IMG/VR virus record: IMGVR_UViG_3300046170_000464
Span: 16,499-80,498 of that record
Direction: 5' to 3' (one strand)
Length of the DNA stretch: 64,000 nucleotides
Source: a virus
Shown piece after piece: positions 771 through 31,250 of the stretch. The translations under genes and the position numbers were made by a program. The notes below the pieces were generated by a model. The model searched no databases. It saw only the letters and a list, made by a program, of their open reading frames with translations, and had not been told where the DNA came from. Numbering within the stretch: the first letter of the stretch is position 1; every line of letters starts with the position of its first letter.

Positions 771-1058
771 ATGGACATCCGCGCTTTCGGATCTGTATAC
801 GGGCAGACGCCCATACTGCCTTACGCAAGTGGGTTTGTTTGGGTGCCTTCGGACGGTCAAAAAACTTTTCCTACCTGCCGTTCTCTATTCGTCGAATCTA
901 AAAGTACTCCTGGGACAGATGACGTTTATGTACGTCTAAACGACATGGGAGAAAATCAATTTATACATATTGAAAATGTTGATGGCAATATCGAGTTGCC
1001 TTTTGGGGCAGTTACACTAAGCGGAGGTTCTGTGAACGGCGTAGTCGTCCTTTACTAA
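771..1058 (+). CDS. Hypothetical small virion protein
   Basis: Beta-rich 95 aa ORF ending VVVLY; TAGACT -10-like element at 747-752. Confidence 0.6.
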   Translation: MDIRAFGSVYGQTPILPYASGFVWVPSDGQKTFPTCRSLFVESKSTPGTDDVYVRLNDMGENQFIHIENVDGNIELPFGAVTLSGGSVNGVVVLY

Positions 1059-1065
1059 TAGGACT

Positions 1066-1632
1066 ATGAATTTATTTAAGTGGACTGCATTAGGAGTCGG
1101 TAGTGTTGTTGCTGTAGCACACATTGGTGTGTTGGGGCACATTATCAAAGCAACGAAAGCTCCACAAGCTCCAGTTATAAATTTTCCCAGAGGAGATTAT
1201 TCTTCTTACAAAGTCAAAGCAGATAAAGAAGGTTATACAGTCGAATACAAAGCAAACGATCCTACTGTTCTTGAGTCACAAAAATCTTTATCGCTAGATA
1301 AGGAAAAGAAAGGATTTTTCGGTGGTGGTAGTGAAAATCGTCACGAGTGGCGCAAAGACCAGTTCACTATGGACGGCACTAGGAACCTAGGAGGTGTCGT
1401 AGCAGATGGTGAGGGAAAGTCTGCAAAAGACATAGAGTGCATCGTGGCGGACGCTGGAGCACGGTCACAAGGTGCAATGGCCGGAACTAGTATTGCTGCT
1501 GGTGTTGGTGTTCCTGCTGTTATCGGTATCCCGTATGTTGGGTGGCTAGCTGCTGGATGGGTTTCACTATTAGGCGGAAAATTAGGTTCTGCTGCTGGAT
1601 CTACCGTTGGTAGCATAGTTAATGACTGCTAA
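1066..1632 (+). CDS. Conserved cyanophage membrane protein with glycine-zipper C-terminus
   Basis: N-terminal hydrophobic helix; ECI..DAG..SQG..AG and IPYVGWLAAGW Gly-rich helices. Confidence 0.65.
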   Translation: MNLFKWTALGVGSVVAVAHIGVLGHIIKATKAPQAPVINFPRGDYSSYKVKADKEGYTVEYKANDPTVLESQKSLSLDKEKKGFFGGGSENRHEWRKDQFTMDGTRNLGGVVADGEGKSAKDIECIVADAGARSQGAMAGTSIAAGVGVPAVIGIPYVGWLAAGWVSLLGGKLGSAAGSTVGSIVNDC

Positions 1633-1638
1633 ATAAAG

Positions 1639-1932
1639 ATGAGTTTTACTGGTTACTCCGATATTTTTGCTGATCGTTACGGACGGTCTATTGCCGCCGC
1701 TGATAATCAAAGGCGTCGGGATCAAGAATCCACACAGCAATTCGCTGGGCAAGTTCAGTCAGACTTGAATCAAGAAGCCGGTGGCCCTGTTCCTCCAACA
1801 ATGCCGGACGATGGGAGTAACCCGCAGTTTGATACTGGTATGGACGAGGAAGTAAACGAAAACGTAGAACGCACTAAAAATTACTTACTGGAAGTATCTA
1901 AGAAACGCTTGAATCAAGTAGCAGACGTCTAA
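1639..1932 (+). CDS. Hypothetical protein
   Basis: ATG ORF packed in the + strand operon. Confidence 0.6.
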   Translation: MSFTGYSDIFADRYGRSIAAADNQRRRDQESTQQFAGQVQSDLNQEAGGPVPPTMPDDGSNPQFDTGMDEEVNENVERTKNYLLEVSKKRLNQVADV

Positions 1933-1969
1933 GACTGAGGTAGCATATTGCTACTCGAATCGTTCTTCT

Positions 1970-2782
1970 GTGCTGATCGATTGCTTTCCTTATTTCAATG
2001 AAAAGGAGCTATTAGAACTTCGTATCAAAACTCTCTACGATCATGTAGATGGCTTCTTGATAACAGATGCTAATTATACGCACAGAGGGGAACCTAAAGA
2101 ATTTACTTGCGTTAATACTCTCAGAGAGCTCGGGATTCCCGAAGACAAAGTGCAAGTGCTCCACGTTGAGTTACCTACGTACGAAGAAGCACCAGACCCC
2201 TGGGTCAGAGAAAGAGGACAGAGAGACGCTTTAAGTGTTGGTTTATTTCAGCTGCCAGGAGATACTTTTTTTATATGCTCCGATTGTGACGAAATAGCAA
2301 ATCCGGAAAAGCTAGAAGAGGTAAAACAAGCTGTTCTAGATAACCCTGATAAGACAGTTCGTTTGAGTATGTCTATGCACTACGGACGAGCTGACCGACA
2401 GCTTCAATCACCACAAGAAGAAAAATTCGATTGGCGCTGTGGGGTAGTTAGTACGGTTGATGGTCTAAGGGAATTCGGAACTCTTTCTTCGTTACGAGCC
2501 ACTACGAACAATTATTACGTAGGTGAACGTGATGCAGGGTGGCATTTTAGCTGGATGGGTGATGCAGATAAACGACGAACTAAGTTACGCTCCATCGCTG
2601 AGTATTACATCTGGGATAAACCTGAAGTACAGGAGTTGTGTGACGAATTCAAACCTGAAGAAGGCAACACAGACATGCTTGGTCGTCAGGATCATTTGTT
2701 GACTTCGTATCCAGTGGATAAACTTCCTGAAGGTGCCCTTAGAATAGAAAGAGTTAGAAAATACCTTTTACCTGATGGCTGA
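1970..2782 (+). CDS. Glycosyltransferase family 17-like (beta-1,4-GlcNAc transferase/MGAT3-like)
   Basis: DCFPYFNE.ELLELR...VD.F.I...N.TH.G.PK N-terminus, E..QR, SDCDEI (DxD) and GWHFSW motifs. Confidence 0.85.
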   Translation: MLIDCFPYFNEKELLELRIKTLYDHVDGFLITDANYTHRGEPKEFTCVNTLRELGIPEDKVQVLHVELPTYEEAPDPWVRERGQRDALSVGLFQLPGDTFFICSDCDEIANPEKLEEVKQAVLDNPDKTVRLSMSMHYGRADRQLQSPQEEKFDWRCGVVSTVDGLREFGTLSSLRATTNNYYVGERDAGWHFSWMGDADKRRTKLRSIAEYYIWDKPEVQELCDEFKPEEGNTDMLGRQDHLLTSYPVDKLPEGALRIERVRKYLLPDG

Positions 2783-2926: not shown

Positions 2927-5146
2927 ATGGCAGCCTCACTTGACACGCGGAATAAGTTCGAGGAGATCTTAGAGGCTGCTCGGACTCAAGGTCGACAGAA
3001 CCAAGCTGCAACCATGGTGGTGCTGAGCCACTTGCAGCAGATGACCCTCTTGATGATTAAAAAGGGGATCTCTTTTTACTGCGACCAAGACACTCTAAAA
3101 AGCAGAACAAGATTTCTGCACGATGTGATCGAGTTAAATCGGCTTGATATTCGTTTTCCAGCGATTATCCGAAACTTCCTAATTGATGGTTGTGGCCTGT
3201 TTTACTTCCGCCCAGATCAAAAACTTAAATATCAAATCTATTTCTTTAACAAAAATCAATATCGGGTCTTTCACGATCTGAATGGTCAAATTGAAGAAGT
3301 CGTAATTATTTACGATTACAAAGTAAAGAACGCCACCCTTGGTCTACCGAGCGATGTCTACGGACAAAACAAACGGTATGTTCGACTTTCGATTACAGCT
3401 GAGACAATCAGCGAAGTTGAGTCTGACTCAGAACTAAGTTTCGAAGTAGAACCAGGCCCAGGTATCAACGGCACTAAAGTTCGCGCAAATTCTCTTGGTT
3501 TTGTGCCCGCTGTTGAATGCTTAAACAAACCTAACGCCAGCGGCACAGAAGGAGAAGGTGATTTTGATCCGTTTATGGAGCAAATTGTGCTTCATAACGA
3601 GATGATCACCAACATCTCAAAGAATATTGAATTTTTTGGTAACCCTACTCTGATCTCCAGCCGACCACGGTCTGACCTGGTCGAAGCTGCTGATGCCGGA
3701 AGTGCTTTCCGTCCCACAATCAGTTCTCAAAGTGGGTTTGCTGGGAGAGATTCTCCTTCAACACGCGTTAGTGAACCATTCGGTTCAGCGATGGGAGGTG
3801 GCCTTCGTGTGCCTCGCATCATCGCTAACGTCGAACCTTCAGATCGTGTCGGCTACATGACGCCTGACCCGATTAGCGGTGACATGAACCGTTATGTTCT
3901 GTTGCTGAGAGAAGAAATCCGTACCGCTCTTGGCGGTGTGGACGAAATTTCAATCTCGGCAGGCGCAACTGCGACAGAAATTAAAGGTTTGATGGGTCGT
4001 GCCCAAGCCACGGCTCTTCGAAAAAACAAAAGTTTCCTTACTTACGGTTTTTGTCGTCTCTTAGAGATGATGATTTACCACCAGGAAATGATCTTCCGTG
4101 AGTCGTTTATTGCGGCCTCAGGATTAAAGGAACCTAAAGAACCAACTGAATTAACCGAAGACTCAACTGAAAAATATCAGAAAGCTTTACGTCGTTTTGA
4201 CATGAAGCTCGACGAAGAAATTAAAAAAGCCTTAGAGAAAAACAAAGTTCCTCGCGGCGTTATTGGTTTACCAGAAGATGGAGACCGTAGCGTTTCATAT
4301 CGCTTTATGGGCGATGTGTACGAAGATACGGCCTTTGACTTACAGCAAAAGTCAATCGTTGTAAGGAACATGCAAGAGGTTGGTGTTAATAGTGTTGAAG
4401 CTATTAAGTACCTATTCCCGGATAAGACTGAAGCCGAACGTGCCGAAATGTTGAAAGGATTCCCTTTCAGAATGGTTGGACAAACACAGTCGGCAATGCA
4501 GCAATTCCTGGTATTATTAAATCAGATGTATCAGTCTCCGCATCCTCTTGCGCCTGATCAACCCCTTGCGGCTGATCCTAGACTGAATATCACACCGCTC
4601 CTTTACAGGACGTTTGATCACCTTGCGGAAGAATTAACTTACTCGGGTAGCTATGAGCCAGCAGATCCAAGCTTCGACCCCGAGCCCGGTGTCCCCGGCG
4701 GCAGCCCCGGCGGTATACAACGACCAGGGCTCAACAACCGCCTTCCCGCAGTGGGTGGCACAAACGTCTACCCCGGCGGTAGCTTCGGTGCCTACAGCCC
4801 AAGCGCCACAGCAGGTGGCACCGGTTTCGGACCCTTCTATCAACGCCCCGTCCAGCCCGTCAACGTCGCAATCCTCCCCGAGCAACCCTTGGGAAGCAGC
4901 GATGGGGTCCCTGGAACGAGTGTTGGGCCAGATTCCATCCCCCAACCAGGCAGCACCATCACAGACCCTGGAAACACTGCAGGGTACAACACAGCTGAGT
5001 CAGCCTTCACAGGTCCAGCCTTGGGCCTACCAGCAGCAGGCTCCGCAGACATTGCCTACCAGCGCCTCACCGACCCAAACTTCCTCGCAGGCTTCTACGG
5101 AAACCAGCAACGGGGAACTCAGCGCCGCAAGCGTCGAGGTAATTAA
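2927..5146 (+). CDS. Portal protein (probable) with long Pro/Gly-rich C-terminal extension
   Basis: GFVPAVECLN...GEGDFDPFMEQI..HN...NIEFFGNPTL portal-like pattern; size and position upstream of scaffold and capsid genes. Confidence 0.7.
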   Translation: MAASLDTRNKFEEILEAARTQGRQNQAATMVVLSHLQQMTLLMIKKGISFYCDQDTLKSRTRFLHDVIELNRLDIRFPAIIRNFLIDGCGLFYFRPDQKLKYQIYFFNKNQYRVFHDLNGQIEEVVIIYDYKVKNATLGLPSDVYGQNKRYVRLSITAETISEVESDSELSFEVEPGPGINGTKVRANSLGFVPAVECLNKPNASGTEGEGDFDPFMEQIVLHNEMITNISKNIEFFGNPTLISSRPRSDLVEAADAGSAFRPTISSQSGFAGRDSPSTRVSEPFGSAMGGGLRVPRIIANVEPSDRVGYMTPDPISGDMNRYVLLLREEIRTALGGVDEISISAGATATEIKGLMGRAQATALRKNKSFLTYGFCRLLEMMIYHQEMIFRESFIAASGLKEPKEPTELTEDSTEKYQKALRRFDMKLDEEIKKALEKNKVPRGVIGLPEDGDRSVSYRFMGDVYEDTAFDLQQKSIVVRNMQEVGVNSVEAIKYLFPDKTEAERAEMLKGFPFRMVGQTQSAMQQFLVLLNQMYQSPHPLAPDQPLAADPRLNITPLLYRTFDHLAEELTYSGSYEPADPSFDPEPGVPGGSPGGIQRPGLNNRLPAVGGTNVYPGGSFGAYSPSATAGGTGFGPFYQRPVQPVNVAILPEQPLGSSDGVPGTSVGPDSIPQPGSTITDPGNTAGYNTAESAFTGPALGLPAAGSADIAYQRLTDPNFLAGFYGNQQRGTQRRKRRGN

Positions 5147-5564
5147 ACAGTTTGGTGTTGAAGCTCCTGGAATTCTGAATTCTTATGCTTGCGCTTTGGA
5201 GGACATGCTCCTTCAGCAGGCACAAAAGACCGATCAAATCACCGAAAGAGCCGGTGGTATGGAGCAAATCCTTACCAACCCTGATTTCTTGGCTGATTAC
5301 ACTGATCGTTTCTTTACTGAAGTGGTTCCTGTTGACATCGATAGCGATGTTCAAACTCAGGCTCCTCAGCAGTATCAGCAGAACTACGACATGCCTGCTC
5401 CTCCGGCTGCAACTGCCGGTCAACAGCAAGCTGCTCAACCACAGCAGCAGTGGGATGCCTTCGGCGACGCTATGAATCGTTCACCTGAGAACGCATGGCG
5501 TCATCTCGCACATATGAGCCCTGAAGCTCTGCGTTCTAAGCTCCTCTTTATGGAAGCTTCTTGA
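4653..5564 (+). CDS. Scaffolding-like protein, overlapping the portal gene by 494 nt
   Basis: Q/P/S/A-rich N-terminus, helical core, position between portal and capsid; followed by terminator. Confidence 0.6.
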   Translation: MSQQIQASTPSPVSPAAAPAVYNDQGSTTAFPQWVAQTSTPAVASVPTAQAPQQVAPVSDPSINAPSSPSTSQSSPSNPWEAAMGSLERVLGQIPSPNQAAPSQTLETLQGTTQLSQPSQVQPWAYQQQAPQTLPTSASPTQTSSQASTETSNGELSAASVEVIKQFGVEAPGILNSYACALEDMLLQQAQKTDQITERAGGMEQILTNPDFLADYTDRFFTEVVPVDIDSDVQTQAPQQYQQNYDMPAPPAATAGQQQAAQPQQQWDAFGDAMNRSPENAWRHLAHMSPEALRSKLLFMEAS

Positions 5565-5625
5565 CTTAAACCTTAAACCCTGTAACTTTATTAAGTGGAA
5601 GGGTTTAGGGGGCTCTGCCCAGGGA

Positions 5626-5654
5626 AAGACTCCTCGAAAGGGGGGTCTTTTTTC
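5626..5654 (+). terminator. Rho-independent terminator
   Basis: AAGACTCCTC-GAAA-GGGGGGTCTT stem then T-run; an additional hairpin lies at 5571-5610. Confidence 0.8.
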
Positions 5655-5682
5655 TGCTATCTTGATAAAAAAGAAGCTAATT

Positions 5683-5817
5683 ATGAAGTCTTTACAAGCT
5701 AGTGGTCGAGATAAAAGCAAAGGGAAGGAGAAAAAACCTCGTGTAGGAGCATCCCCAGGCCCAGCCAAACAAACTGCGGCTGAACAAGAGGTATTTGACG
5801 AAAATGTTCAACTCTGA
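5683..5817 (+). CDS. Small hypothetical protein (44 aa)
   Basis: MKSLQASGRDKSKGKEKKPRVG...; not in ORF track. Confidence 0.45.
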   Translation: MKSLQASGRDKSKGKEKKPRVGASPGPAKQTAAEQEVFDENVQL

Positions 5818-5847
5818 TTCTCTTTAGTCACTATTTTTGTCAGATTT

Positions 5848-6108
5848 ATGTTGCGTAGTCTTTTTTCGCTAGTTCTTGCCGCTGTCTTGTGGGTTCAAGT
5901 GCCTCAATGGGAAGCCGACTGGTCAAGATGCGCTGTTGATGTACCCGATGTCAGCTGTCATTGGTACGTAGTCGCACCAGATAACACTTTTGGCAAAGGT
6001 TTTGACTGGGCAACAGCACCGTGGTTTGATGTCAACGGCCTGCAAGACGTAAGCAAGTTAAAAAACACGATGCAAGTAATCCATCAAGAATCTTTGTCGG
6101 TTAGCTGA
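5848..6108 (+). CDS. Secreted protein of picocyanobacterial type
   Basis: Signal peptide; Trp/Cys-rich WVQVPQW...CAVDVPD..CHWY..APDN motif. Confidence 0.65.
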   Translation: MLRSLFSLVLAAVLWVQVPQWEADWSRCAVDVPDVSCHWYVVAPDNTFGKGFDWATAPWFDVNGLQDVSKLKNTMQVIHQESLSVS

Positions 6109-6419
6109 AGATCTTTACTTGTTTTTTCTTTAATTTTGTGGAGCACCGTAACTTCAAGGGTATTTAGTATTTTTATACCGGCGTAACCACCTACAAAAGC
6201 CACTGCAACGGCTTCTGTTTTACTTAATTTCATTCGCTCAGCTATCGCAGGGCTGACAAAAGTCGCAAGTAACCAGCCGACAGATAATGCTCTTAAAAAA
6301 TGTGTTATGAACTCGCGTTTACTTCGTGGGTTGACTAAAGCTTCAGTCACGGTGCCTGCAATAGAGCTACCTGCTAGACCAGCATCAACTGCCATCATAG
6401 ATGCAACTTTCTCTAGCAT
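6084..6419 (-). CDS. Holin-like membrane protein
   Basis: Three hydrophobic segments, AFVGGYAG, basic C-terminus. Confidence 0.5.
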   Translation of the reverse strand: MLEKVASMMAVDAGLAGSSIAGTVTEALVNPRSKREFITHFLRALSVGWLLATFVSPAIAERMKLSKTEAVAVAFVGGYAGIKILNTLEVTVLHKIKEKTSKDLQLTDKDS

Positions 6420-6485
6420 CTGACTATTAAGTATTAGTGCTATATGAATCTTAATCAGACTTAGAGTATAAAAAAAGCTCGGTAA

Positions 6486-7313
6486 ATGACTTTTGCTGCT
6501 CTTACAAACTGGAAATACGACAAATCGTTATATCACAACATCCAGTCAGGACCTCAGCGAACTGGATCTAACTTAAATCTCACAGATACTTACTTACTTA
6601 CGTCAAGTGGGTACGTTTACGCAAGTGGGCAACAACAAACCTTTGTCGCTTTGCACGATCAAGGAGCAAACTTTGGAATAGTCACTCCTGGGCCACCAAA
6701 TAGTTCTGGTTACTTCACTACTGACTGGAGAGCTGTGCCCACGGCTGTGTCAGGCTACTGGACCGATTATCAAAACACTTATCCTCATTCATCGGGACTT
6801 TTAACTGTTTACAACGGATTTAGACGTCAAGGTTTAATTAATACTGCTAACAGCACTGTACAAACTGCTTTTGGGCCTGAACCTGGTCTAAAAGACATTG
6901 GACCTTACATTTCCTACGGAAGAAACCTTCCAGATAATCAATTTTATGGTCCGTTTGAGACACCTGAAGGAAATACAGCAGCGCAAGGTAGTACAGGTGG
7001 ACCTGTCGCTTACCCTCTCTCGCAATTCCCTCTTTTAACTAACCCGACACAAGGCGTAACCGGATCTAGGGCTGATTGGGTTTATAACACTCCTGTGTAC
7101 TGCAAGGTGTGGACAGAATCGACGACGTCAAGAGTTCCTCCAGGCGAAACAGCTGACAATACGAATCCAATCGTAAGAGGTAGTTATAGAGGTAGATCTT
7201 CTCGGTATGTTCCAAATTACGGTGGAATCTATGGAGTACTAGGAGAAGGTGTTAGAGGCATGATCCGCACCTTTAGTTCTACAGTTAATAGTTCTAACCA
7301 AAAAGGTATTTAA
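6486..7313 (+). CDS. Virion structural protein
   Basis: T/G/S/Y-rich; adjacent to major capsid gene; 6 SG dipeptides. Confidence 0.6.
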   Translation: MTFAALTNWKYDKSLYHNIQSGPQRTGSNLNLTDTYLLTSSGYVYASGQQQTFVALHDQGANFGIVTPGPPNSSGYFTTDWRAVPTAVSGYWTDYQNTYPHSSGLLTVYNGFRRQGLINTANSTVQTAFGPEPGLKDIGPYISYGRNLPDNQFYGPFETPEGNTAAQGSTGGPVAYPLSQFPLLTNPTQGVTGSRADWVYNTPVYCKVWTESTTSRVPPGETADNTNPIVRGSYRGRSSRYVPNYGGIYGVLGEGVRGMIRTFSSTVNSSNQKGI

Positions 7314-7395
7314 CGCTAAAAACGAGACGTCAGCTATGTAGACATAGTTGATAAAAGGCTAAGATTATTTTGTAGTTTCTTGTGGACACTTATCG

Positions 7396-8511
7396 ATGTT
7401 TATCGATAATGATTTCCCCAAGATTCTTGGTGCGGAACTGTATCGTCCCCATCCTGCTTATATCGTTGAAATGGCTGCCGAACCGGTGGTCGTTCATGAT
7501 TTTTCTAAGCAGCCTGGTCAGACTGTTCAGCTCGATCGTTATCGTTTCTTCGGTAACCCAGGCTCCAAGGAATCTCGGGAACGTACTGCAGAGCAGACCA
7601 TTGGTACTGCTAACAGCCGTAACATCGTCAAGGACAAAGTCCTGGTGACTCTTAAGGAGTACACCGGACCTGCGGACCCTAACGATCCAACTCAGCCTTC
7701 TACTTTCAAGATTGCTCGGGAAACCCTTATCACTGCGCAGCGACTGCTGCTTGATACAGGCAACCTGACCACCTTCCATCAGTCAATCGGCAGTCTGACC
7801 CTGCTCGATGACTATCGTCGGTGGCGCGATCGGGTGTTCATTAATGAACTCCTTAAAGCTGTTTCTAAGGGACAAAGTTCTGATTCCCAGGGTGGTTATT
7901 ACTTCCCAGGTGATCTAGCAACTGGTGCCCTTACCTACACCAACGCCGAACAAGCTAAGTTCGACGTCAAGGACGACCTCCTCCGTGTGGTCAAGTCCCT
8001 CCGTAAGCGCAACACGCCGACCTACCAGGACGGTTTCTATCGCTGCGTTTGCGATCCTACATTCCTGATGCACCTGCGTCAGAACTCTGACTTCCGTGAG
8101 GTCGCTCGTTACCCAGGTAACGGACAGATCAACCCGCTGATGTCGGCTATGCAGCCGAACGCCAGCATCTACATGGGTCAGGGCTTCGGCCAAGCTACGT
8201 TTGTGGCTGGCGAACCGATCATGCCAACTGGCTTCGTCTTTGAAGGCGTGCGATTCTTCGAATCCACCAACATGCCTTCCCAGACCCAGAGTGCAACGAT
8301 CGCAGGTGCGACTGCAGATACCAAGGCTGCCATCGGCATGTTCTTCGGTCCTCAGTCTGTTGGTGTGGGCATCGGCGGTAACAACGCTCAGGTGCTTCTC
8401 AACAACAATGACGACTTCAGCCGTTTCATCATGATGATTTGGAGCCTCTATGCAGGTTTCGAACTTCTGAACGCTGATTTCGCCACAATTGCTTACTCCT
8501 TTGACGCCTGA
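7396..8511 (+). CDS. Major capsid protein
   Basis: 371 aa, strongly biased codons; PGQTVQLDRY, VTLKEYTG, GFVFEGVRFFES capsid-like motifs. Confidence 0.85.
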   Translation: MFIDNDFPKILGAELYRPHPAYIVEMAAEPVVVHDFSKQPGQTVQLDRYRFFGNPGSKESRERTAEQTIGTANSRNIVKDKVLVTLKEYTGPADPNDPTQPSTFKIARETLITAQRLLLDTGNLTTFHQSIGSLTLLDDYRRWRDRVFINELLKAVSKGQSSDSQGGYYFPGDLATGALTYTNAEQAKFDVKDDLLRVVKSLRKRNTPTYQDGFYRCVCDPTFLMHLRQNSDFREVARYPGNGQINPLMSAMQPNASIYMGQGFGQATFVAGEPIMPTGFVFEGVRFFESTNMPSQTQSATIAGATADTKAAIGMFFGPQSVGVGIGGNNAQVLLNNNDDFSRFIMMIWSLYAGFELLNADFATIAYSFDA

Positions 8512-8526
8512 GGAGGAAATTAAACA

Positions 8527-9393
8527 GTGATTAACGCTAATCAGTTACACGTTGCCAAGATTTATCCTGGTAACTACACGAATGTTCTTCGTTACTGGCA
8601 CGAAGTAAAATCCATTGCATCTCAGAATGCAAATGGTGTTGACACGACCATGACGGGTCAGCCCGTTGGTGGTCCTGTCGGTGTTGTGTTCCAGCCTGGC
8701 TGGATTGCACAGCAGGCAGTTGGTTATGTCGACATGAGCTACCAAGCTCTTGGCACTAACAACCAGCTTGCCTACTATGCGCAACCTTATGGCTCAGGTC
8801 AGAACGCTTCTCAGCAGCCTTTCCTGAACGCCAACGTTATCGTTCCTTCACCCGACTTCCACAAAGATGTCCGGGCTGACATTACCGATGGCATTAAAGT
8901 CCCTGCAACAGCCTACGTTTATCGCGCTTCTCTGCGCCTTAGCGGTGGCGACATCGTTAGCAGCGGCGTTGCTGGATCTGATTCTACTCCTGAACTAACC
9001 CTCGTTCCCGCTGTGGGCGAAGGTCTTAAGGATGACGGCACTGTCGTCTCCGGTCAGTTCGGTGCAACCATTACTGGTGCTAACAGCGCTATCGCTAACG
9101 GTAGTGTTGCTTCCACGAACATCTTCGACTCCAGCAGCTGGGCTGCTTTGGGTTCTGAGACTACTTGGAAATTGTTCACCACTAGTGATCAGAGTGCTTC
9201 TGGTCTTTACCAAGGCTCAGGTGTCTATGACCCCCGTGCCGGTGTCAACAAGTTGGCTGGTGATGACAAGGCTCTCGCTATCTGCGAAGTCTGCTGGATT
9301 ATTCCTGATGAGCCACCCGAGCGCCAGGACGTTGCTCTGCAACCCGATGGCCTCACCGAATCTCAGGTGTACACCTCCACTTCTCCTTCCTGA
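8527..9393 (+). CDS. Abundant structural protein (capsid decoration or tail tube)
   Basis: Directly after capsid gene, GAGGAGG RBS, same codon bias, followed by terminator. Confidence 0.7.
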   Translation: MINANQLHVAKIYPGNYTNVLRYWHEVKSIASQNANGVDTTMTGQPVGGPVGVVFQPGWIAQQAVGYVDMSYQALGTNNQLAYYAQPYGSGQNASQQPFLNANVIVPSPDFHKDVRADITDGIKVPATAYVYRASLRLSGGDIVSSGVAGSDSTPELTLVPAVGEGLKDDGTVVSGQFGATITGANSAIANGSVASTNIFDSSSWAALGSETTWKLFTTSDQSASGLYQGSGVYDPRAGVNKLAGDDKALAICEVCWIIPDEPPERQDVALQPDGLTESQVYTSTSPS

Positions 9394-9414
9394 TATACTC
9401 AGCAAGCGAGGACC

Positions 9415-13620: not shown

Positions 13621-13623
13621 TCT

Positions 13624-22959: not shown

Positions 22960-24310
22960 ATGCCTGAACGTAATAGCCCTGCGTGTCCACTTCACGGCGT
23001 TTTACCCAGGGCACGTGCACCGCACAACTTCTTCGGAATTGTGTCGGTAGTCGATAACCTCATCGAAACCATCAGCGGCGTGGGAACTACTAGCTACACC
23101 AGATGTCCTTATGGATACCCACCTAACTTCGAAGGTGTAGTAAGGGCACTCGAAGATTTAAACTCCACTGCTAGTGGTATCGAAGCTACTGGAGGATTAC
23201 TAGTCCCTGGTTCTGGGATCAGTATTACGACGAGTGGTTTATACAGCATCATTGCAAGTCTCATTACCCAGTCTTTTCCGGGGTCTGGTGTACTTGGTGT
23301 TCCTAGTGGACAAGGAACTCTCTTTGACGTAAATATTCAAGGATTAGGAAATAACGATGTTGAGTACGACGGAAAACTAATTCAAGTTTCTGGCACTAAC
23401 GAAGGTGCTGTTGCTGTTGTTAGTGGACTTGTAGGTGGTGACGGAATTACTGTTACGGCTAGTGGTTCAACTGCTGTTGTCAGCACTGACCTTATTGGTC
23501 AAGGATCAGTCGATTTCTCCTACAACGGTGCTCGGGTTGGAGTAATTTCTGGAACTTCTCAACAACTTCTTGTTGCTGGATCTGGAACAAGTGTCAGCCA
23601 GAGTGGAGACTTCCAGGTTGTTGATATCGGAATTATTGGGGACACCGGTATTGGTGCTAGTTACTCCGGATCGTTTGTCTCTCTCGAAAGTCTGTTAGTT
23701 GCTGGTTCTGGTTCTGCTGTAAGAACAAGCGGCGATTATCAACAGATCGACGTTGGATCTCTACCAGGAACCAACGTAACAATCGGTTACTCGGGATCCT
23801 TTATTAAGTACAACAGCACTGCTGAAGCAGGTGCCGCTGTGGTTACGATTTCGGGTGACCCTGGAAGTAACTTCGTCGGCGGTTCTCTTTGGTTCGACAC
23901 TAACGAAGGTCGCCTCTTCGTTTATGCGTCTGGAAATAACGTTACCAAACCTGATTGGTATATCGCTAACGCTGAAGCTCTAGCAATTAAGAGCGAAGTT
24001 CCTCCTTCTGGCACAGGCGGACTCAACTCTCCTCCAAGAGATGGAACCATTTGGTTCAACAACCTCATGGGTTCGCTGTTCGTTTACGACGCTGCTACAA
24101 GCGGTTGGTACGAATCCGCTCCTTCTCGTACTCCTTCTTACGGAGATGTACCTCCTGTCAATGCAGTAACAGGCGCTCAGTGGACCTGATTCTCGTAACA
24201 ATGTCATTCACGTTTGGGATGGCTCTGCTTGGGATAACGTCATTGCGAGCGGCAATTCTCCAGGTATGTCTCAAGGTGACGTTATTGGTCTAATCATGGG
24301 TCTGAGCTAA
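22960..24310 (+). CDS. Fibre protein (about 449 aa; +1 frameshift at 24185)
   Basis: AGGAGG RBS; G.LWFD...GRLFVY repeats; the corrected frame continues QWTDSRNNVIHVWDGSAW...GMSQGDVIGLIMGLS. Confidence 0.75.
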
Positions 24311-24334
24311 TATTCTCAGATAATTCCTCTAAAG

Positions 24335-24454
24335 ATGACAAAACCTAGGACTGAAAATCAAATCGAAGCAAAACCAAAACGTACTAAACAGGGCAATGGG
24401 CGTCACTCGAAACCTTCGCACGGGCGTAAGCCCTATAAAGGTCAAGGCAAGTAA
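24335..24454 (+). CDS. Small basic cyanophage protein (39 aa)
   Basis: PKRTKQGNGRHSK...KPYKGQGK. Confidence 0.7.
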   Translation: MTKPRTENQIEAKPKRTKQGNGRHSKPSHGRKPYKGQGK

Positions 24455-24479
24455 ACTTATATAAGAATCTGGTAGAAAC

Positions 24480-24875
24480 GTGCTCTTATCTTTTCGTGCT
24501 GGTGAAAACATCGCTCTAGGTGATGCAGTAGCTGTAGATATGAGCACTTCTGGCTATATCCGTACAGCTAGATCCTCTGGAGACCTCGATGAAGCAAACA
24601 CGATTGGTGTTTCTGTCGACGATGTGAGTACTGGGACACTTTGCCGTGTGGTTACCGACGCACAAGCAGTTGTTTATTCGGGTTTGATTCCTGGTACTAG
24701 ATATTTTGTGAGTGCAAGCGGGGGAAAAGTCGTTGATTACCCAACCTATGTAGCTGGTTTCGATCAGTTGGGAGCTTCTGGAGCTTATTTAGTAGAACTA
24801 GGAACAGCAATTAGTACTGGTTCACTTAGAATTTGTCCTCAACAACCTCGATACGTTGTTAGTGGATACCTTTGA
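24480..24875 (+). CDS. DUF2190/capsid-cement-like structural protein
   Basis: AGENIALGDAV...IGV...GLIPGTRYFVS. Confidence 0.6.
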   Translation: MLLSFRAGENIALGDAVAVDMSTSGYIRTARSSGDLDEANTIGVSVDDVSTGTLCRVVTDAQAVVYSGLIPGTRYFVSASGGKVVDYPTYVAGFDQLGASGAYLVELGTAISTGSLRICPQQPRYVVSGYL

Positions 24876-24914
24876 AAAAGTGTAGAATAAAGCGTAAGTA
24901 TCTGGTTGTGATCG

Positions 24915-25430
24915 GTGCCGAACAGATCGATATTCAACCGCAATTACACAAGTTATCAAGCTGACGGTACAACTGTATACCTAGCTAATGGTCAGGGAGT
25001 TGTCACAAACCCTGCTCCTGAGGCTACTTTGACAGCTGGCGCTAACTTAATTGCGGGAGATATGGTTTCCGCTAGTGGTGCTTTTGCAGTACCTGCTATC
25101 GCTCTTAGTGGTGTAAACGCTTATCAGTTTTCTCCAATTGGTTTTGCCGGAGAAGCGGCAACCCAAGGTTCAGACGTTGTGGTAAATCTAGATGGAGTGA
25201 TTGGCTTAACTTCAGCAAATATCACTGCAGACACAGCTCTTATTCCCGGAGAATATTATTATTTATCTAAATTTGAAGGAGAAGTTGTAAGGTTCACCAC
25301 AACTTCGGGGACTGTCACAGGTTCCGGATCTAATGCATATCAAGCTGCGACAAGTGTTGGGCTAGCTATTACATCTACACAACTAAGTGTGGAAATTTCT
25401 CCACCAGTTCTTCTTTATACTGGAGGGTAA
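24915..25430 (+). CDS. DUF2190/capsid-cement-like structural protein (paralog)
   Basis: AGANLIAGDMV...IGFA...LIPGEYYYLS...VGLA. Confidence 0.6.
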   Translation: MPNRSIFNRNYTSYQADGTTVYLANGQGVVTNPAPEATLTAGANLIAGDMVSASGAFAVPAIALSGVNAYQFSPIGFAGEAATQGSDVVVNLDGVIGLTSANITADTALIPGEYYYLSKFEGEVVRFTTTSGTVTGSGSNAYQAATSVGLAITSTQLSVEISPPVLLYTGG

Positions 25431-25441
25431 AGAGTTAAATC

Positions 25442-26954
25442 ATGGTAGTCCGCAGGCCGGTAGTTTTAGTTAGCGGTGCTCTCGCCGAGCTACCTTTTGG
25501 TGACAGTATTATCACCTCTGCTTCTGGCGGTCTTCTTACCGCAGGCAGTGGTTTAGTAGGTGGCGGTAATACAGATTCCACTATTCGTTTAGATGTAGCT
25601 TTTACAGCTCAACCAAGTGGTCTTATTTATGTAGGAAACGAGATTTCCGTCGATGGTGTTGCGCTTAAACGTTCTACAGACGCATTGGCCTCAGGCAATG
25701 CTGCCTTTATTAGATTCTACGAATGCATTAGCCTCCGGAAATGCAGCTTTATCTAATGCAGCCGTAGCTTTATCTTCTGGTAATGCTGGTCTAACAGAGG
25801 CTGCTATTGCGATTGCCTCTGGAAATGCAGCTTTAGAAGTTGCTGAGACAGCACTAAGTTCTGGTAATTCTTCTCTTCAGCTTGGCGAATACGCACTTGC
25901 TTCAGGAAATGCTGCCTTAGCAGACGCTGCTACTTCTCTTGCTTCTGGTAACGCGGCACTGCTTTTATCTGAAGAAGCACTTGCTTCAGGTAATGCAGCA
26001 TTAATCACCAACGTTCGTGCGCTTGCCTCGGGTAACGCAGCTCTGGAAGACGCTAATACAGCGTTGGCCTCTGGAAACGCAGGTCTTGCAGATGCTGTGG
26101 TAGCCGTTGTTTCTGGCAACGCATCTTTAACAGTTTCTGTCTCAGCTTTAGCTTCTGGTAATGCCGCATTAATAGATTCTGAGCAAGCTTTATCTTCTGG
26201 TATTGCTGCCGTTTCTCTAGCAAACTCAGCTCTTGCCTCTGGTAATGCGGGCTTAGCTGATTCTGCTGTTGCTCTTGCTTCAGGAAATGCTGCCCTCGTC
26301 GACTCCGCTGTCGCTCTTGCTTCAGGCAATGCAGCAGTCGTTCTTTCAAACACAGCTTTAGCTTCTGGTCAGGCTTCTCTAAACCTGGCAAACGTCGCAC
26401 TTGCGTCGGGTAATGCCGGTTTAGCTGTAGCTGAATCTGCTGCTGTATCTGGCAACGCGGCGATCAGTGTTTCTTTAAACGCACTTGCCTCTGGTAATGC
26501 TGGTCTGGCTGTAGCAGTACAAGCACAAGCTTCAGGTAACGCTGCTCTAGAAGATTTAGCAGGAGCTGCTGCTTCCGGTAATGCAGGTATCGCTCTTGCA
26601 CTTGCAGCCCAAGCTTCCGGCAATGCAGCCATTTCAGACGGGATCGTTGCTTTAGCTTCCGGTAACGCTGGATTAGTTCTTGCTGCTGCCGCTGCTGCAT
26701 CTGGTAACGCCGCAATCAGCGATTCAGCTATTGCTCAAGCTTCTGGCAACGCTGCCCTTGTGGTAGCTAATACTTCTCTAGCTTCAGGTAACGCAGCATT
26801 ATCAGTTTCTAGTACTGCACTAGCTTCTGGTAATGCTGGTTTGGTCATCGTGCCTGTAGCGCAAGCTTCTGGCAATGCCGCTCTCGCAGCTTATGCGGCG
26901 AACCCAGGCTTAAGTCAGGGCGCTGCAATCGGCTTAATTATCGCGCTTTCGTAA
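25442..26954 (+). CDS. Coiled-coil fibre protein A (about 503 aa; +1 frameshift at 25706)
   Basis: 29 tandem 14-aa xxxALASGNAALxx repeats; C-terminus GLSQGAAIGLIIALS. Confidence 0.75.
25672..26892 (+). repeat. 42-bp (14-aa) degenerate coding tandem repeat, 29 copies
   Basis: Recurring GCx TCx GGx AAy GCx core at 42-nt period. Confidence 0.9.
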
Positions 26955-26955
26955 A

Positions 26956-28466
26956 ATGACTCTGCGTAGAGGTCTCGTTTATTCCGGCGGTTTTATTGCC
27001 GAAAGCCATGACGATGACGTCATCCCAATTACTGGTGACTTAATCGCAGGTAGCGGCCTCGGTGGTCGTATTTTTACGCTCGGTCTAGCTAATTTTGTTC
27101 AAACTGATTTACCTGTAAATCCTTCTGGACTTTTATACACAGCTGACGGAAAACTAGGACTTGACGGTGCCGATTTAACTTTAGGTCTCACTGCAATTGC
27201 CTCTGGTAGTGCCGCTGTTTCTCTTGCAGTTACTGCCTTAGCTTCTGGAGAAGGAGCAGTCATTGAAGTCTGCCGAAGCTCAGGCTTCAGGTAACGCTTC
27301 TATTGCTACTTCTTTAAGTGCTCAAAGTATCGCAAACAACGCTTTAGCTTCTGGTTTCGAAGCTCAGGCATCTGGTGATGCAAGTTTATCTCTCAACACT
27401 GAAGCACTTGCATCTGGTATAGATGCTCTTGTTGATACTGCAGTCGCTACATCTTCTGGGCAACAAGGACTAGTCAAAGCAAATATTGCAGCTGCTTCTG
27501 GATTTGCAGCAGAGTTCAGAGCAAGTTCAGCTCAGGCTTCTGGCAACGCTGCTTTATTTAATAATCAGTCTGCAATCGCTTCTGGATCAAGTGCGGTTGT
27601 AAATTCAGCGTCTGCTATAGCTTCTGGTGCTGCGTCTGTTCAAGTAAGTGCGGTAGCAATTGCTTCTGGAACTGCAGCGATTATTGACTCATCAATTGCT
27701 TTAGCTTCTGGTAATGCAGCTTTAGCCGACTCTTCAATTGCGTTTGCGTCTGGTAGTGCCGCATCTACTGCAGCTACTGAGGCACTGGCTTCGGGAAACG
27801 CAGCAGTTGTTCAAGCAAATCAAGCTACTTCCTCAGGTAATTTTGCTCTCGCTAACAGTGTCGAGGCTTTAGATAGAGCTTCTGATGCAGTTGTCAAATC
27901 AATCTTTGCTATTTTTCTGCACGACGAAGCAGTTGAAACCTCAGACACAGCCATTGCTTCGGGGTTAGCTGGTGAAGCTATTGCACCGACGGCTATTGCT
28001 TCCGGTGATGCCGTTCATGCTCCTGCTGCAGTTGCTTTGGCTTCCGGAAATGCAGCCTTAGCTCTTATTCCTGAGATTACTGCTTCTGGTAACTCTTCTA
28101 TAACAGTTGCTCTTGTAGCCGAGGCTTCAGGTAACGCAGCGCTATCTCTTTCTTTCAAGGCCAAAGCATCTGGTGATGCAAGTATCTCAGAATCACTTAC
28201 TTCCATATCCGTTGCTAACACTGCAATTGTCAGTGGTGTGGCAGCAATTGCTACGTCTGCTACAGCAACGACTAGTGGTGTCTTATCAGTTACTCAAGCC
28301 GATAGAGCGATTGTTTCTGGAGTCAGAAGCCCAAGCTTCTGGTAACGCTTTAATCTTCGACGGTAACCAAGCACTTGCTTCTGGTAACGCTGCTTTGACT
28401 TTGATCATAAATAATCCTCCAGTAGACCAAGAACAGATGATCGGATTAATAATGGCGCTCTCTTAA
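26956..28466 (+). CDS. Coiled-coil fibre protein B, paralog of A (about 502 aa; +1 frameshifts near 27262 and 28325)
   Basis: Same N-terminal domain (RR.LV...AE...AGSGL...PSGL.Y...DG), ASG repeats, C-terminus MIGLIMALS. Confidence 0.7.
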
Positions 28467-28520
28467 ATATTTCTAGCTAATCAGCTATAATTAATTTATC
28501 TACGGCCACCTGGAAGTCGA

Positions 28521-28841
28521 ATGGCTACCTTCTATAACAAAGTTGTTAAAAATGTAGATACGGGGAAGATTGCAGTATTTCAATCTACTTCTGACAGCAC
28601 GATCGTCTTGAGTATTCTCGTTGCAAATACCACCGGTTCTACTTCTGCTGATGTAACTGTACAGCAAGACAATTCAGCAAATGGTCTAGAAGCTTACTTA
28701 GCTCGTACAATTCCTGTACCAGCTCAAAGTAATCTTGATGTAATTTCAAACAAGTTTATTATTCCTAGCGGCAAAAAAATAGCTGTTCAATCTACAGTTA
28801 GTGGAAGTATGGATACGATCGTCTCTTATGTAGAGGTCTAA
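28521..28841 (+). CDS. Fibre-associated beta-sandwich protein
   Basis: TIVLSILVAN...ADVTV...IPVP..SNL...K..IP.G.KI.V type that commonly follows fibre genes in marine phages. Confidence 0.65.
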   Translation: MATFYNKVVKNVDTGKIAVFQSTSDSTIVLSILVANTTGSTSADVTVQQDNSANGLEAYLARTIPVPAQSNLDVISNKFIIPSGKKIAVQSTVSGSMDTIVSYVEV

Positions 28842-28843
28842 AA

Positions 28844-29629
28844 ATGGAAATTAAAAATTGGACTTCTGCTTTATTTACTAAAGAAGGCAGTGACCCAGCT
28901 TATCTTCCAGAAATTTTTTTCTTACCTGACGGTGACGCTAGGCGTAGTAAATCATGTTTATTAAGTGATATAACAGCAGCTGGGTACATTGGACCTATCG
29001 ATCAACCTCCATTTTCTTCTGTAGGTCAGATAGTAACTTGGGATAGTGTTAATTCAAACTGGGTTGTAACTACAGTTAGTTCTACCGTTGACCCTGATTT
29101 TGAAAATAGTGAGGTTGTTCAGTATTTAAGTTCAGAACTTCGACTTTCTACTGTCGTCACGGATGGAAAACTTTCTCCTTCCTCCAAAAGAGAGCTGTGG
29201 TTGTATCAGGGTAAAATTCGTGAGTTATTAGCAGATAAGGCTGCTGAAGGAGGTAAAATCTCTTGGGGTGAAACACCCTTACGTCCTGAGTCGTTAGTTA
29301 GTTTGTCATTTGCTCAAGAACGAGCAGAAAATTTTATAAACATCGAGCCACAATCTCGAACAGATTATGAAGATTATGGTTTAATTTTTGTTCCTTCTGG
29401 TGTTGAAGCTGAACTTTTACCTTCAATCCCAGCTGATTGGACAAAAGGTTCGGGGTCTCTTCCAAAAGATTTAGTTAATAGAAATTATTTTATCCCAGAA
29501 AATTACTGCATTTCTGATGCTGATTTTAATATTTCCGGTTACTACTATGTTGAAGAATCTAGTGTTTATAGCGATAGAGTAGCTGCTACGATAGAGCAGA
29601 ATCGTCTAGATAAAGCACCCGGAGCTTAA
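28844..29629 (+). CDS. Fibre-associated protein / assembly chaperone-like
   Basis: AAGYIGP...P....Q..TWD...WVV; position in fibre module. Confidence 0.55.
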   Translation: MEIKNWTSALFTKEGSDPAYLPEIFFLPDGDARRSKSCLLSDITAAGYIGPIDQPPFSSVGQIVTWDSVNSNWVVTTVSSTVDPDFENSEVVQYLSSELRLSTVVTDGKLSPSSKRELWLYQGKIRELLADKAAEGGKISWGETPLRPESLVSLSFAQERAENFINIEPQSRTDYEDYGLIFVPSGVEAELLPSIPADWTKGSGSLPKDLVNRNYFIPENYCISDADFNISGYYYVEESSVYSDRVAATIEQNRLDKAPGA

Positions 29630-29631
29630 AT

Positions 29632-30696
29632 ATGGCAGGCGGTAACAGAAAAATTGGCGGTGCCACCGGTAATACCCCTTTTCCTACAGACAGTACGGGT
29701 AAAGGTTCTTGGTCCAGAGAAGAACAATATCGTTTTAAATTACGGGGGGAGTGGCCTGTTTTTCCTGTTGGAGAAATTGGTTTAAATACAGGAGAATACT
29801 TTTATGCTATTTCTAGTGGTGTAGTAACTGGTAGTGGTACTGAATTTATACCCGCTCATGGAGCTAACGTTTCAAGAACAACTGCTGAACCTCTTTTCCA
29901 AGTAATTGGTACAAATTTTGGTATTGGAGATGGAGCTGCTAATTTTGGGGTTCCTGATGTAAGTGATGATCTGGGTTATTTAAAACCAGATATTAATGTT
30001 GTCTCAGGGACTTATTCTTCTGGCACTTTGCCTCAGCATACTCACCAATTTTTTAAACCTCAATCTAATACACCGCGAAGACTTGACTATCGAGCTAACG
30101 AGACTCAGGCTTCTGGTTGGTGGAGTAGCTATGACGGATCTCTTAACAACGGACGTTTTAAAGAAACTGTTTGTTGTATAACTAATACTGAGATGGATTA
30201 CCCAGTGGGCTCCATTATTCAGATTATGTTACCTTGTTCACCAACACTTATTGCGACTCTTCTTCCTGACAACGTTGTCATTGCTAGTGGTCAGCCGATC
30301 AGTCGAACTACATACTCTAACTTATTTGGAAAAATTGGAACTGATTACGGTGTAGGAAACGGATCTACAACGTTTAATATTCCAGATTATCGAGGCGTCT
30401 TCATCCGTGGTATACAAGGATCTGACGGAGGACTACGAATACAGCCTTCTGGAGCAATCACGGGTAGTGGATATTTTGAGTCTGATTTTCATAGACATAG
30501 GCATAGAATTAACCAAACTTTATTTATCAACATCGTACAACAACAAACTCTTGACGGAGGCGCACCTATCGATCCTTTCGGAGAAGCTTATGGCCCTCCA
30601 TCTTCATTAGCATCAAATATTGGTGGTGCAGTTGAAAATAGACCACCTAATATAACAGCATTGAACTGTGTTGTTATTGACACTTTCGCTATTTAA
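29632..30696 (+). CDS. Tail fibre protein with two tail-collar domains
   Basis: VSRTT..LF.VIGT.FG.GDG...F.VPD and ISRTTYSNLFGKIGTDYGVGNGSTTFNIPDYRGVFIRG; HTH/HRH; ENRP.N. Confidence 0.85.
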   Translation: MAGGNRKIGGATGNTPFPTDSTGKGSWSREEQYRFKLRGEWPVFPVGEIGLNTGEYFYAISSGVVTGSGTEFIPAHGANVSRTTAEPLFQVIGTNFGIGDGAANFGVPDVSDDLGYLKPDINVVSGTYSSGTLPQHTHQFFKPQSNTPRRLDYRANETQASGWWSSYDGSLNNGRFKETVCCITNTEMDYPVGSIIQIMLPCSPTLIATLLPDNVVIASGQPISRTTYSNLFGKIGTDYGVGNGSTTFNIPDYRGVFIRGIQGSDGGLRIQPSGAITGSGYFESDFHRHRHRINQTLFINIVQQQTLDGGAPIDPFGEAYGPPSSLASNIGGAVENRPPNITALNCVVIDTFAI

Positions 30697-30698
30697 CT

Positions 30699-31250
30699 AT
30701 GATTGGTCACATCACCTATTCTGCTGTTAATAAAGGTACATCCTTTGTTTCTGCTACAGGAGCAACTTATGTGCTGATGAATAATCAGACAATAAGCCGA
30801 ACGTCCTTCCCTAACTTATCTGTATACTGGGCTATAGGCTCTTTCGGTTCTACTGCAACCGAAATGGTTATTCCCGATATATCGTATTGTCAATTACGAG
30901 GTGTTGATTTAGGTCGGGGCGCTGATCCAGATAGGGCAGATAGAGTATCTATTTCTGGTATTCTTCCTTCGGGTGAGCAGACAGGCAGTTTTCAGGCTGG
31001 ACAGATGTTGTCACATGTTCATGTTTCTGGCACAGGTGCAAGTGGATTCCATGGTTTTGGACCTAATCCTATTTGCCCCTCAAACCAGTACACGCCTTGT
31101 GGCCCACTGACGCTTACAGAAGTAACAAGTACGAATATTCCATACTATAGTCCTGATCACGGGACTAATATTCACACGTCAGGCACTACAGCTAATTGTT
31201 TTGAAGTAGGTGGTGTTACTTGTTTTCCTTATATTTGTGTAGCTGTATAA
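30699..31250 (+). CDS. Tail-collar domain fibre protein
   Basis: ISRTSFPNL...IPD....LRG.D.GRG.DPD...GSFQ....SHVH. Confidence 0.8.
   Translation: MIGHITYSAVNKGTSFVSATGATYVLMNNQTISRTSFPNLSVYWAIGSFGSTATEMVIPDISYCQLRGVDLGRGADPDRADRVSISGILPSGEQTGSFQAGQMLSHVHVSGTGASGFHGFGPNPICPSNQYTPCGPLTLTEVTSTNIPYYSPDHGTNIHTSGTTANCFEVGGVTCFPYICVAV

Follow-up and report, generated by a model that had tools for sequence, protein, structure and literature searches.

Ser-Gly excess in the tail-fibre module of a marine S-EIV1-like cyanophage and its relation to phage-encoded glycosyltransferases

The structural arm and its virus

The stretch of viral DNA analysed here (the window, 64,000 nucleotides) corresponds to bases 16499–80498 of the 80,498-bp IMG/VR record IMGVR_UViG_3300046170_000464, a genome estimated to be 100% complete. 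The window contains a rightward arm with the head, tail and fibre genes of a tailed phage, together with a gene for a GT17-like glycosyltransferase (GT) (Table 1). An earlier note on this DNA had proposed that Ser-Gly (SG) dipeptides, enriched across the virion proteins, are acceptor sites for a glycosylation system encoded by the phage. As described below, the SG excess is restricted to the fibre module, and we lean towards reading it as mainly a structural signature of the tail-fibre proteins of this lineage, with no demonstrated glycosylation sequon. The toolkit of sugar genes is real, yet nothing ties its enzymes to SG.

The sole named relative of this virus is Synechococcus phage S-EIV1. 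Relatives of the capsid protein are encoded on 594 IMG/VR stretches, the best 80 being 91–98% identical, and several of these stretches sit on 78–87 kb contigs; the source virus is a widespread marine S-EIV1-like cyanophage. It may belong to the uncultured marine lineage of Flores-Uribe et al., whose closest relative is likewise S-EIV1 (bioRxiv 10.1101/325100).

Relative to the close relative G001, the window contains six frame breaks. Four are single extra bases in the fibre genes, one near 24185 and three at the places given for fibres A and B in Table 1, and two more lie in unrelated genes near 18870 and 44474. The extra fibre-gene bases are missing from G001, from the relatives L120–L123 and from all public contigs that cover them, in three runs for 24185 and in four runs for the other three places. 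They are therefore record errors or the mark of a rare defective variant, and programmed +1 frameshifting in the fibre genes was rejected. The intact fibre products are 449, 503 and 502 aa long.

Table 1. Structural, fibre and sugar-related genes of the record, with positions in the window or in the whole record (genome)
Feature	Window position	Genome position	Strand	Remarks
2-oxoglutarate (2OG)-Fe(II) oxygenase		4447-5070
Methyltransf_24		5296-6021	-
FkbM methyltransferase		6391-7092	-
Weak GT2		7137-7907		24.9 bits, cut-off 23.3
Second, weak Methyltransf_24		7910-8590
GH130-like protein		12269-13360	-	ESM Atlas score 0.98 to clusters carrying PF04041
GT4		13360-14523	-	44.7 bits
Large terminase		14568-16088		506-aa open reading frame (ORF), Terminase_6C domain
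290-aa ORF after large terminase	1-462 (C-terminal 153 aa)	16088-16960	+	no assigned family
DUF3310 gene and two small ORFs	between 290-aa ORF and phrog_605 gene			rightward arm
Gene common to T4-like cyanophages	1066-1632			phrog_605
GT17-like glycosyltransferase	1970-2782		+	270 aa, soluble; PF04724
Portal protein	2927-5146		+	phrog_20475, phrog_64; 43% identity to S-EIV1; SG 5, expected 4.8
Major capsid protein	7396-8511		+	371 aa; phrog_1357; SG 0, expected 1.8
Tail genes	between capsid and fibre module			fibre module = 15194-15787 and 22960-31250
Tail-fibre-like protein	15194-15787		+	197 aa; phrog_356 minor tail protein, residues 10-155
Beta-rich fibre protein	22960-24307		+	449 aa in intact relatives; here 409-aa ORF plus 40 aa in next frame
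Small fibre-module proteins	24480-24875 and 24915-25430		+	no Pfam or PHROG match
Fibre A	25442-26954		+	503 aa in intact relatives; extra base near 25704
Fibre B	26956-28466		+	502 aa in intact relatives; extra bases near 27266-27269 and 28323-28324
Two fibre-module proteins without significant SG excess	28521-28841 and 28844-29629		+
Tail-collar-domain fibre protein	29632-30696		+	PF07484 Collar, E 1e-24; tail-fibre PHROGs
Protein related to collar fibre	30699-31250		+	183 aa; tail-fibre PHROGs
2OG-Fe(II) oxygenase	31253-31894		-	PF13640 match at genome 47754-48038
2OG-Fe(II) oxygenase	31961-32533		+	PF13640 match at genome 48765-48974

Ser-Gly in the fibre module

The expected number of SG dipeptides was obtained by shuffling the residues within each protein. 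In the structural arm, SG occurs 150 times against 59.7 expected (z 13.6) and is the most over-represented of all 400 dipeptides, while the reverse dipeptide Gly-Ser (GS) occurs 76 times (z 2.2). The remaining ORFs of the genome are at expectation (SG 88 against 90, z −0.2; GS 100). Within the structural arm, the 12 ORFs of the head and tail core (2927–15192) contain 36 SG against 24.4 (1.5x, z 2.6; GS 33), and the fibre module contains 114 against 36 (3.2x, z 14.8; GS 43). With fibres A and B removed, the eight other proteins of the fibre module retain 57 SG against 24 (2.4x, z 7.8; GS 39, z 3.4). Only six ORFs are individually significant (p ≤ 0.003), those starting at 15194, 22960, 24480, 25653, 26956 and 27263, and all six belong to the fibre module. 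The excess is confined to this module, and the description of the enrichment as virion-wide does not stand, the value of the head and tail core lying inside the range of control phages.

The single counts given in the earlier note were reproduced. There are nine SG in the 197 aa encoded at 15194 (3.7 expected, p 0.003), six in the 131 aa at 24480 (1.7 expected, p 0.002), four at 24915 (1.9 expected, not significant) and six each at 6486 and 8527; the eight at 29632 (3.9 expected, GS 7) and five at 30699 (2.4 expected) are marginal. The absence of SG from the major capsid protein and its two occurrences in the 918-aa primase were likewise confirmed. For the protein at 22960, the count of 21 in 449 aa fits the intact G001 orthologue, whereas the ORF of this record holds 20 SG in 409 aa (7.7 expected). 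The SG-rich proteins had been called non-homologous; this is correct save for fibres A and B, which are paralogues by BLASTP.

A baseline was taken from the annotated structural proteins of five reference phages. SG counts were 47 against 28.5 expected in lambda (1.65x), 51 against 33.2 in P-SSP7 (1.54x), 58 against 46.6 in Syn5 (1.24x), 24 against 24.2 in T7 (0.99x) and 24 against 25.4 in the long tail fibre of T4 (0.94x). Pooled, the five controls give 204 against 158 (1.29x), with GS at ~1.0x, Asp-Gly (DG) at 1.27x and Thr-Gly (TG) at 1.17x. Because three of these phages show an excess of 1.2–1.65x, with T7 and the T4 fibre at ~1.0x, an SG excess alone is not to be read as a sequon. The controls suggest that such a signal is in part a trait shared by phage tail proteins in general. 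Single control proteins reach 2.0–2.5x (P-SSP7 gp17, Syn5 gp54), so that the proteins encoded at 6486, 8527, 24915, 29632 and 30699 are ordinary in this respect.

The strongest regularity is found in fibres A and B (46% identity, E 8e-35), which both begin with a domain of ~90 aa (MxxRxPxVLxSG...PPGD), continue as a shaft built of 14-residue units and close with a short tail. The shaft of fibre A consists of 29 exact 14-residue repeats (ALASGNAALxxxxx), as counted before, with 28 SG in the ORF and one unit in the preceding frame piece, and SG recurs at a spacing of exactly 14 residues in 27 of 27 intervals. Intact orthologues of fibre A are found in G001, in L120–L123 and in public contigs. 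Across 120 environmental homologues there are 978 units anchored on S-G-N, with the consensus A-[L/Q]-A-S-G-N-A-[A/G]-[L/I]-x-x-[A/G]-x-[T/N]. When the units are anchored without reference to Ser or Gly, Ser is in place in 757 of 811 and Gly in 769 of 811, and Thr takes the Ser position six times. Leu or Ile is present at every seventh residue (unit positions 2 and 9), with Asn at position 6.

To this repeat corresponds, in an AlphaFold2 (AF2) monomer model of the intact G001 orthologue of fibre A (45-sequence alignment), an unbroken helix over residues 92–293 with a predicted local distance difference test (pLDDT) score of ~85–95; the remainder of the model is of low confidence. The model implies that, once the fibre is assembled, the shafts of fibres A and B would form a coiled coil. 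In the heptad register inferred from the repeat, Leu would occupy d, Asn would alternate at a with a variable small or aliphatic residue, and Ser and Gly would occupy f and g, a register that would turn the Ser to solvent and place the Gly directly before the core Asn. The sole contrary hint to a helix is a match of two homologues to the LbR_Ice_bind (beta-roll) family of Pfam, at 21 bits against a cut-off of 30. No Pfam or PHROG family was found for the fibres, and fibre A has no PDB sequence match. In other environmental proteins the shaft repeat is followed by a C-terminal Laminin_G_3, CBM_4_9 or Peptidase_S74 (endosialidase-chaperone) domain, which marks it as a fibre-shaft module subject to shuffling. 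The strict 14-residue unit with its invariant S-G-N is a previously undescribed shaft motif that is shuffled among receptor-binding heads.

Two side observations concern the ends of these proteins. The 22960 protein, fibre A and fibre B have a hydrophobic C-terminal tail in common, which ends in IGLIIALS in fibre A and, in the intact 449-aa orthologue of the 22960 protein, in GSVIGLIMGLS. In the environmental protein P0121, the N-terminal domain of the 22960 protein is fused to 14-residue repeats and a Laminin_G_3 head, which indicates modular shuffling of fibre parts.

A repeat of this kind raises the alternative that the SG excess is a duplication artefact, in which one unit was copied with no selection on SG. 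Half of the excess does lie in two paralogous repeat proteins, and the codon of the repeat Ser is TCN in 49 of 51 cases, as would fit units of common descent. However, synonymous codons are scrambled, as the earlier note had observed, with ten different SG codon pairs within fibre A; since SG is encoded by many codon pairs, the signal lies at the protein level. In addition, S-G-N is invariant while other positions of the unit vary, and the excess persists in the eight other fibre-module proteins, which have no mutual similarity by BLASTP. A duplication artefact is largely refuted by the codons and by the persistence of the excess beyond the repeats, and we consider it very improbable.

Outside fibres A and B, SG stands in a different setting. 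The 15194 protein has a conserved N-terminal fibre domain followed by short ASG-containing repeats. In the beta-rich AF2 model of the G001 orthologue of the 22960 protein, all 21 SG fall outside the interior of regular elements, 12 being in coil, six at strand ends and two at helix C-termini; the pLDDT of the SG-rich middle is below 50, so that the turn assignment there is weak and indicative only. Among the 57 SG of the eight proteins, Val or Ile is found at −3 in 29, Ala or Pro precedes the Ser, and Phe, Tyr or Leu follows two residues after the Gly in 23. The resulting pattern, [V/I]-x-[A/P]-S-G-x-[F/Y/L], is on sequence grounds that of a predicted strand-turn-strand, with two packed strands and a turn between them.

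Sugar genes and their relation to Ser-Gly

The assignment of 1970–2782 to a GT17-like enzyme is well founded. PF04724 matches with 47.7 bits against a cut-off of 26 (E 1.6e-12), over profile positions 77–207 of 348 in the window protein and 24–273 in relatives. The same family is precomputed on nearly all of the 120 proteins listed among 328 GT17-like homologues, and the nearest 30 ESM Atlas clusters are all GT17. A DxD motif (S104-D105-x-D107-E108) is invariant in 35 homologues (51–83% identity). PDB searches returned no solved GT17 structure and nothing useful for this protein, and isolated phages with a GT17-like gene are few and too distant (24–26% identity) to be used for comparison. Two side observations concern the surroundings of this gene. 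The relatives G008, G009, G010 and G023 carry two GT17-like genes in tandem, against one in the window. The phrog_605 gene at 1066–1632, which encodes a Gly-rich 188-aa protein, shares 74–80% nucleotide identity with ~217 T4-like cyanomyovirus records and was not found in the loci searched of 80 relatives; it was probably acquired recently, next to the GT17-like gene.

A possible second GT at 1–462 was rejected. This segment is the end of a 290-aa ORF that bears no GT signature, has no Pfam or PHROG match and has no tblastn match in S-EIV1. The suggestion that an initiating GT may lie upstream of the window was better placed, in that GTs do lie there: a GT4, a GH130-like protein and a weak GT2 are encoded in this part, along with three methyltransferases. 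The best solved-structure match of the GT4 is B736L of chlorovirus NY-2A (E 1e-14, residues 13–360), followed by MshA at 1e-3. Each of the four complete relatives examined has the GT17-like, GT4 and GH130-like genes, and three of them have GT2 and Methyltransf_24, the record of the fourth being 92% complete. Going by family names only, this toolkit probably builds a methylated, perhaps mannose-containing glycan.

The position of the GT17-like gene bears on the acceptor. No sigma-70-like promoter or intrinsic-terminator-like site was found on the + strand between terminase and portal, and from this operon position virion proteins are a reasonable candidate acceptor of the toolkit. A comparable arrangement is seen in S-CBS4, an unrelated cyanosiphovirus, in which a GT4 homologue (44% identical; NC_016766 9916–12282, locus L198) lies between portal and head protease together with genes annotated as a galactosyltransferase and an S-adenosylmethionine methyltransferase. 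With S-CBS4, a second cyanophage lineage has its sugar genes placed among those for head morphogenesis. Thus, this lineage and an unrelated cyanophage both keep GT genes beside the portal gene. A virion-related role of the GT set is accordingly plausible, although we would stop short of calling it probable.

The SG excess does not track GT content in the small sample of eight genomes available. S-EIV1 has the GT4 (42% identical) and is without GT17-like, GT2, GH130-like and methyltransferase genes, yet its portal-to-fibre proteins contain 87 SG against 48.4 (1.8x, z 6.0), with GS at expectation, and its fibres reach 2.1–3.4x. S-CBS4, with its GT4 homologue, galactosyltransferase and methyltransferase genes, has 122 SG against 94 in its structural proteins (1.30x), which equals the baseline. 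The structural genes of lambda that were examined reach 1.65x without a GT annotation among them, and lambda is not known to encode a GT. The expectation that SG enrichment co-occurs with the GT cluster is thus not borne out. As for relatives that lack GTs, S-EIV1 has only the GT4 of the set and keeps the excess, which by the earlier note's own standard counts in part against its proposal. Within the lineage no contrast is possible, because every member has the GTs. The GT17-like gene is present in 19 of 21 long fibre-bearing contigs, both misses being fragments, and these contigs belong to the same capsid lineage (major capsid protein 89–96% identical), save one half-complete fragment without a capsid match; the co-occurrence of the 14-residue-repeat fibre and the GT17-like gene is for this reason uninformative.

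These results are equally relevant to the possibility that the GT set acts in a manner unrelated to SG, on other virion sites or on a non-virion acceptor such as a polysaccharide of the host envelope or lipopolysaccharide. The GT4 and GH130-like pair lies on the strand opposite the structural genes, and the independence of SG from GT content is as this possibility would have it. GT4, GT2 and FkbM-type methyltransferases are typical of polysaccharide and lipopolysaccharide pathways. A host target fits less well with the GT17-like gene standing amid terminase and portal genes, unseparated from either by a promoter- or terminator-like site, and with the location of the S-CBS4 cluster within the head-morphogenesis module; late co-expression with virion genes would suit a virion target better. 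Cyanophage papers generally ascribe such genes to modification of the host cell surface (PMC12801897). On balance, we assign a low probability to an SG-unrelated action.

Several further features of the record and lineage are given for completeness. Two 2OG-Fe(II) oxygenase genes, which are prolyl-hydroxylase-like, directly follow the fibre module, just beyond the region treated in the earlier note, and several fibre proteins carry P-P-S-G; the oxygenases encoded at 31253–32533 could be putative modifiers of fibre proteins. An exact 482-nt direct repeat (genome 1–482 and 79749–80230, the latter being window 63251–63732) lies close to both record ends. It fits a complete genome that has terminal redundancy or circular permutation, although the record is entered in IMG/VR as linear. 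In the relatives G008, G011, G013, G014, G016 and G022 (loci L138, L152, L170, L173, L181 and L169), the major capsid gene is split, with residues 1–38 and ~37–371 matching ~1 kb apart, which suggests an intron, an intein or a homing-endonuclease insertion in part of the lineage.

Interpretation and comparison with known systems

Taken as a structural signature, the SG excess would have three sources. About half of it comes from the two-heptad, 14-residue repeat of the paralogous fibres A and B, where Leu would fill every d position and Asn every second a position, with Ser at f and, just ahead of the core Asn, Gly at g. S-G-N would then be part of a packing unit that was duplicated and later kept by selection. 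In the beta-rich fibre proteins, SG would stand where a strand or helix gives way to a tight turn. The head and tail-core proteins go no further than the mild preference for SG (~1.3–1.6x) that structural proteins of other phages display as well.

A number of observations weigh against this interpretation. The fibre module without fibres A and B is enriched about twice as strongly as the pooled controls, and the baseline rests on five control phages only. The excess in these proteins is specific to Ser (SG 2.39x, as compared to TG 1.12x and DG 1.31x); generic turn preferences would raise Asp- and Asn-Gly too, so the specificity argues against a plain preference for turns. The low model confidence in the SG-rich middle of the 22960 protein weakens the turn assignment. 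Conservation of the SG Ser somewhat exceeds that of other Ser in five of the seven sets of orthologues, at ~0.63 vs 0.51 by our own weighting; the effect is small and inconsistent. The f-position Ser of the shaft is near-invariant over ~800–1000 units in 120 proteins, which is unusual for an exposed coiled-coil position. Finally, the glyco-toolkit is unusually complete, and in all relatives the GT17-like gene belongs to the structural operon, with the portal gene directly after it in 20 of 20 with enough flank.

Several of these observations favour the alternative that the SG Ser is an O-glycosylation acceptor, with one site per 14-residue repeat and further sites at turns, giving a sugar-coated fibre. 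Most plausibly, the GT4 would act as initiator, the GH130-like, GT17-like and GT2 enzymes would extend the glycan and the methyltransferases would cap it. Such a system would account for a Ser-specific excess in non-homologous fibre proteins and for a near-invariant Ser at the exposed f position of a predicted helix. The presence of the four enzymes and three methyltransferases, the kinship of the GT4 to a chlorovirus enzyme, the place of the GT17-like gene in the terminase-portal operon of all relatives and the S-CBS4 cluster are likewise in its favour. Against it stands the independence of the SG excess from GT content (S-EIV1, S-CBS4 and lambda alike), and co-occurrence within a lineage whose members all have GTs gives no contrast. 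Moreover, Thr almost never replaces Ser in the repeat (6 of 811), and the residues around SG in the repeats (A-S-G-N) do not make up a sequon that recurs in the other proteins ([VI]-x-[AP]-S-G-x-[FYL]). We regard an SG acceptor as unlikely. The fuller proposal, that the lineage O-glycosylates its own fibres at ~30 repeat sites per chain and at the turn SG sites by means of a GT4 initiator, a GH130-like mannoside enzyme, a GT17-like N-acetylglucosamine transferase, the GT2 and the methyltransferases, is quite unlikely. A structural role for SG in the fibre proteins is the reading that we lean towards.

If the fibres were nevertheless glycosylated, the consequences would be considerable. To our knowledge, virion glycosylation in phages has so far been shown only in actinobacteriophages, and it would be extended to an abundant marine cyanophage lineage. 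The acceptor would be simple and periodic, carried on a coiled coil, and would lay a regularly spaced sugar coat over the receptor-binding apparatus, with bearing on the recognition of hosts, on grazing and on how sticky particles are in the ocean.

The mycobacteriophages Che8, Corndog and Myrna reportedly O-glycosylate their virions with phage-encoded GTs, as seen by mass spectrometry, and the glycans are said to be placed on C-terminal Ser and Thr residues of capsid and tail-tube subunits. The present phage resembles them as a tailed phage with several cytoplasmic GTs, whose proposed targets are its own virion proteins and whose proposed role is shielding or surface modification. It differs from them in that the system is here a candidate predicted from genes, the capsid protein contains no SG and the candidate acceptors are fibre proteins.

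Chloroviruses, which are eukaryotic viruses, N-glycosylate their major capsid protein at atypical sites. With the machinery of PBCV-1 and NY-2A (B736L, PDB 3OY2/3OY7) the phage shares virus-encoded soluble GTs that act without a host secretory pathway and the presence of methyltransferases alongside; the likeness covers one enzyme, the GT4, and the phage capsid protein is not implicated. In the serine-rich-repeat adhesins of Gram-positive cocci, the GT4 enzyme GtfA/GtfB starts cytoplasmic O-glycosylation of Ser, and further GTs extend the glycan. These adhesins are alike in combining a fibre-like surface protein that has many short Ser-containing repeats with a GT4-family enzyme. Their repeats, however, are Ser-dense and disordered (SASASAST-like), in contrast to the single Ser per 14-residue helical unit of the phage. 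Moreover, the phage GT4 is closest to the chlorovirus enzyme, GtfA is not among its PDB matches at E ≤ 0.01, and the phage case includes no accessory secretion system.

The eukaryotic GT17 enzyme MGAT3 (GnT-III) has in common with the phage protein a PF04724 match above the curated cut-off and the conserved DxD motif. MGAT3 is a Golgi type II membrane protein that places a bisecting N-acetylglucosamine onto the beta-mannose of N-glycans, whereas the phage protein is soluble, 270 aa long and a partial match to the profile. With the O-xylosylation of proteoglycans by XYLT1/2 (GT14), an analogy drawn in the earlier note, only the Ser-Gly dipeptide is shared. Xylosylation sites have acidic flanks, while those of SG in the phage are hydrophobic or small (A/P/V/I/T before, N/T/S/F/Y/L after), and the 80.5-kb genome contains no GT14/Branch (PF02485) match; the analogy is not upheld.

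T4 fibritin is a segmented trimeric coiled coil, and the stalks of trimeric autotransporter adhesins have core Asn layers. Although the phage shaft is without sequence similarity to any solved structure and is set apart from both in this respect, it has in common with them a heptad helical shaft, a recurrent core Asn and exchangeable receptor-binding heads.

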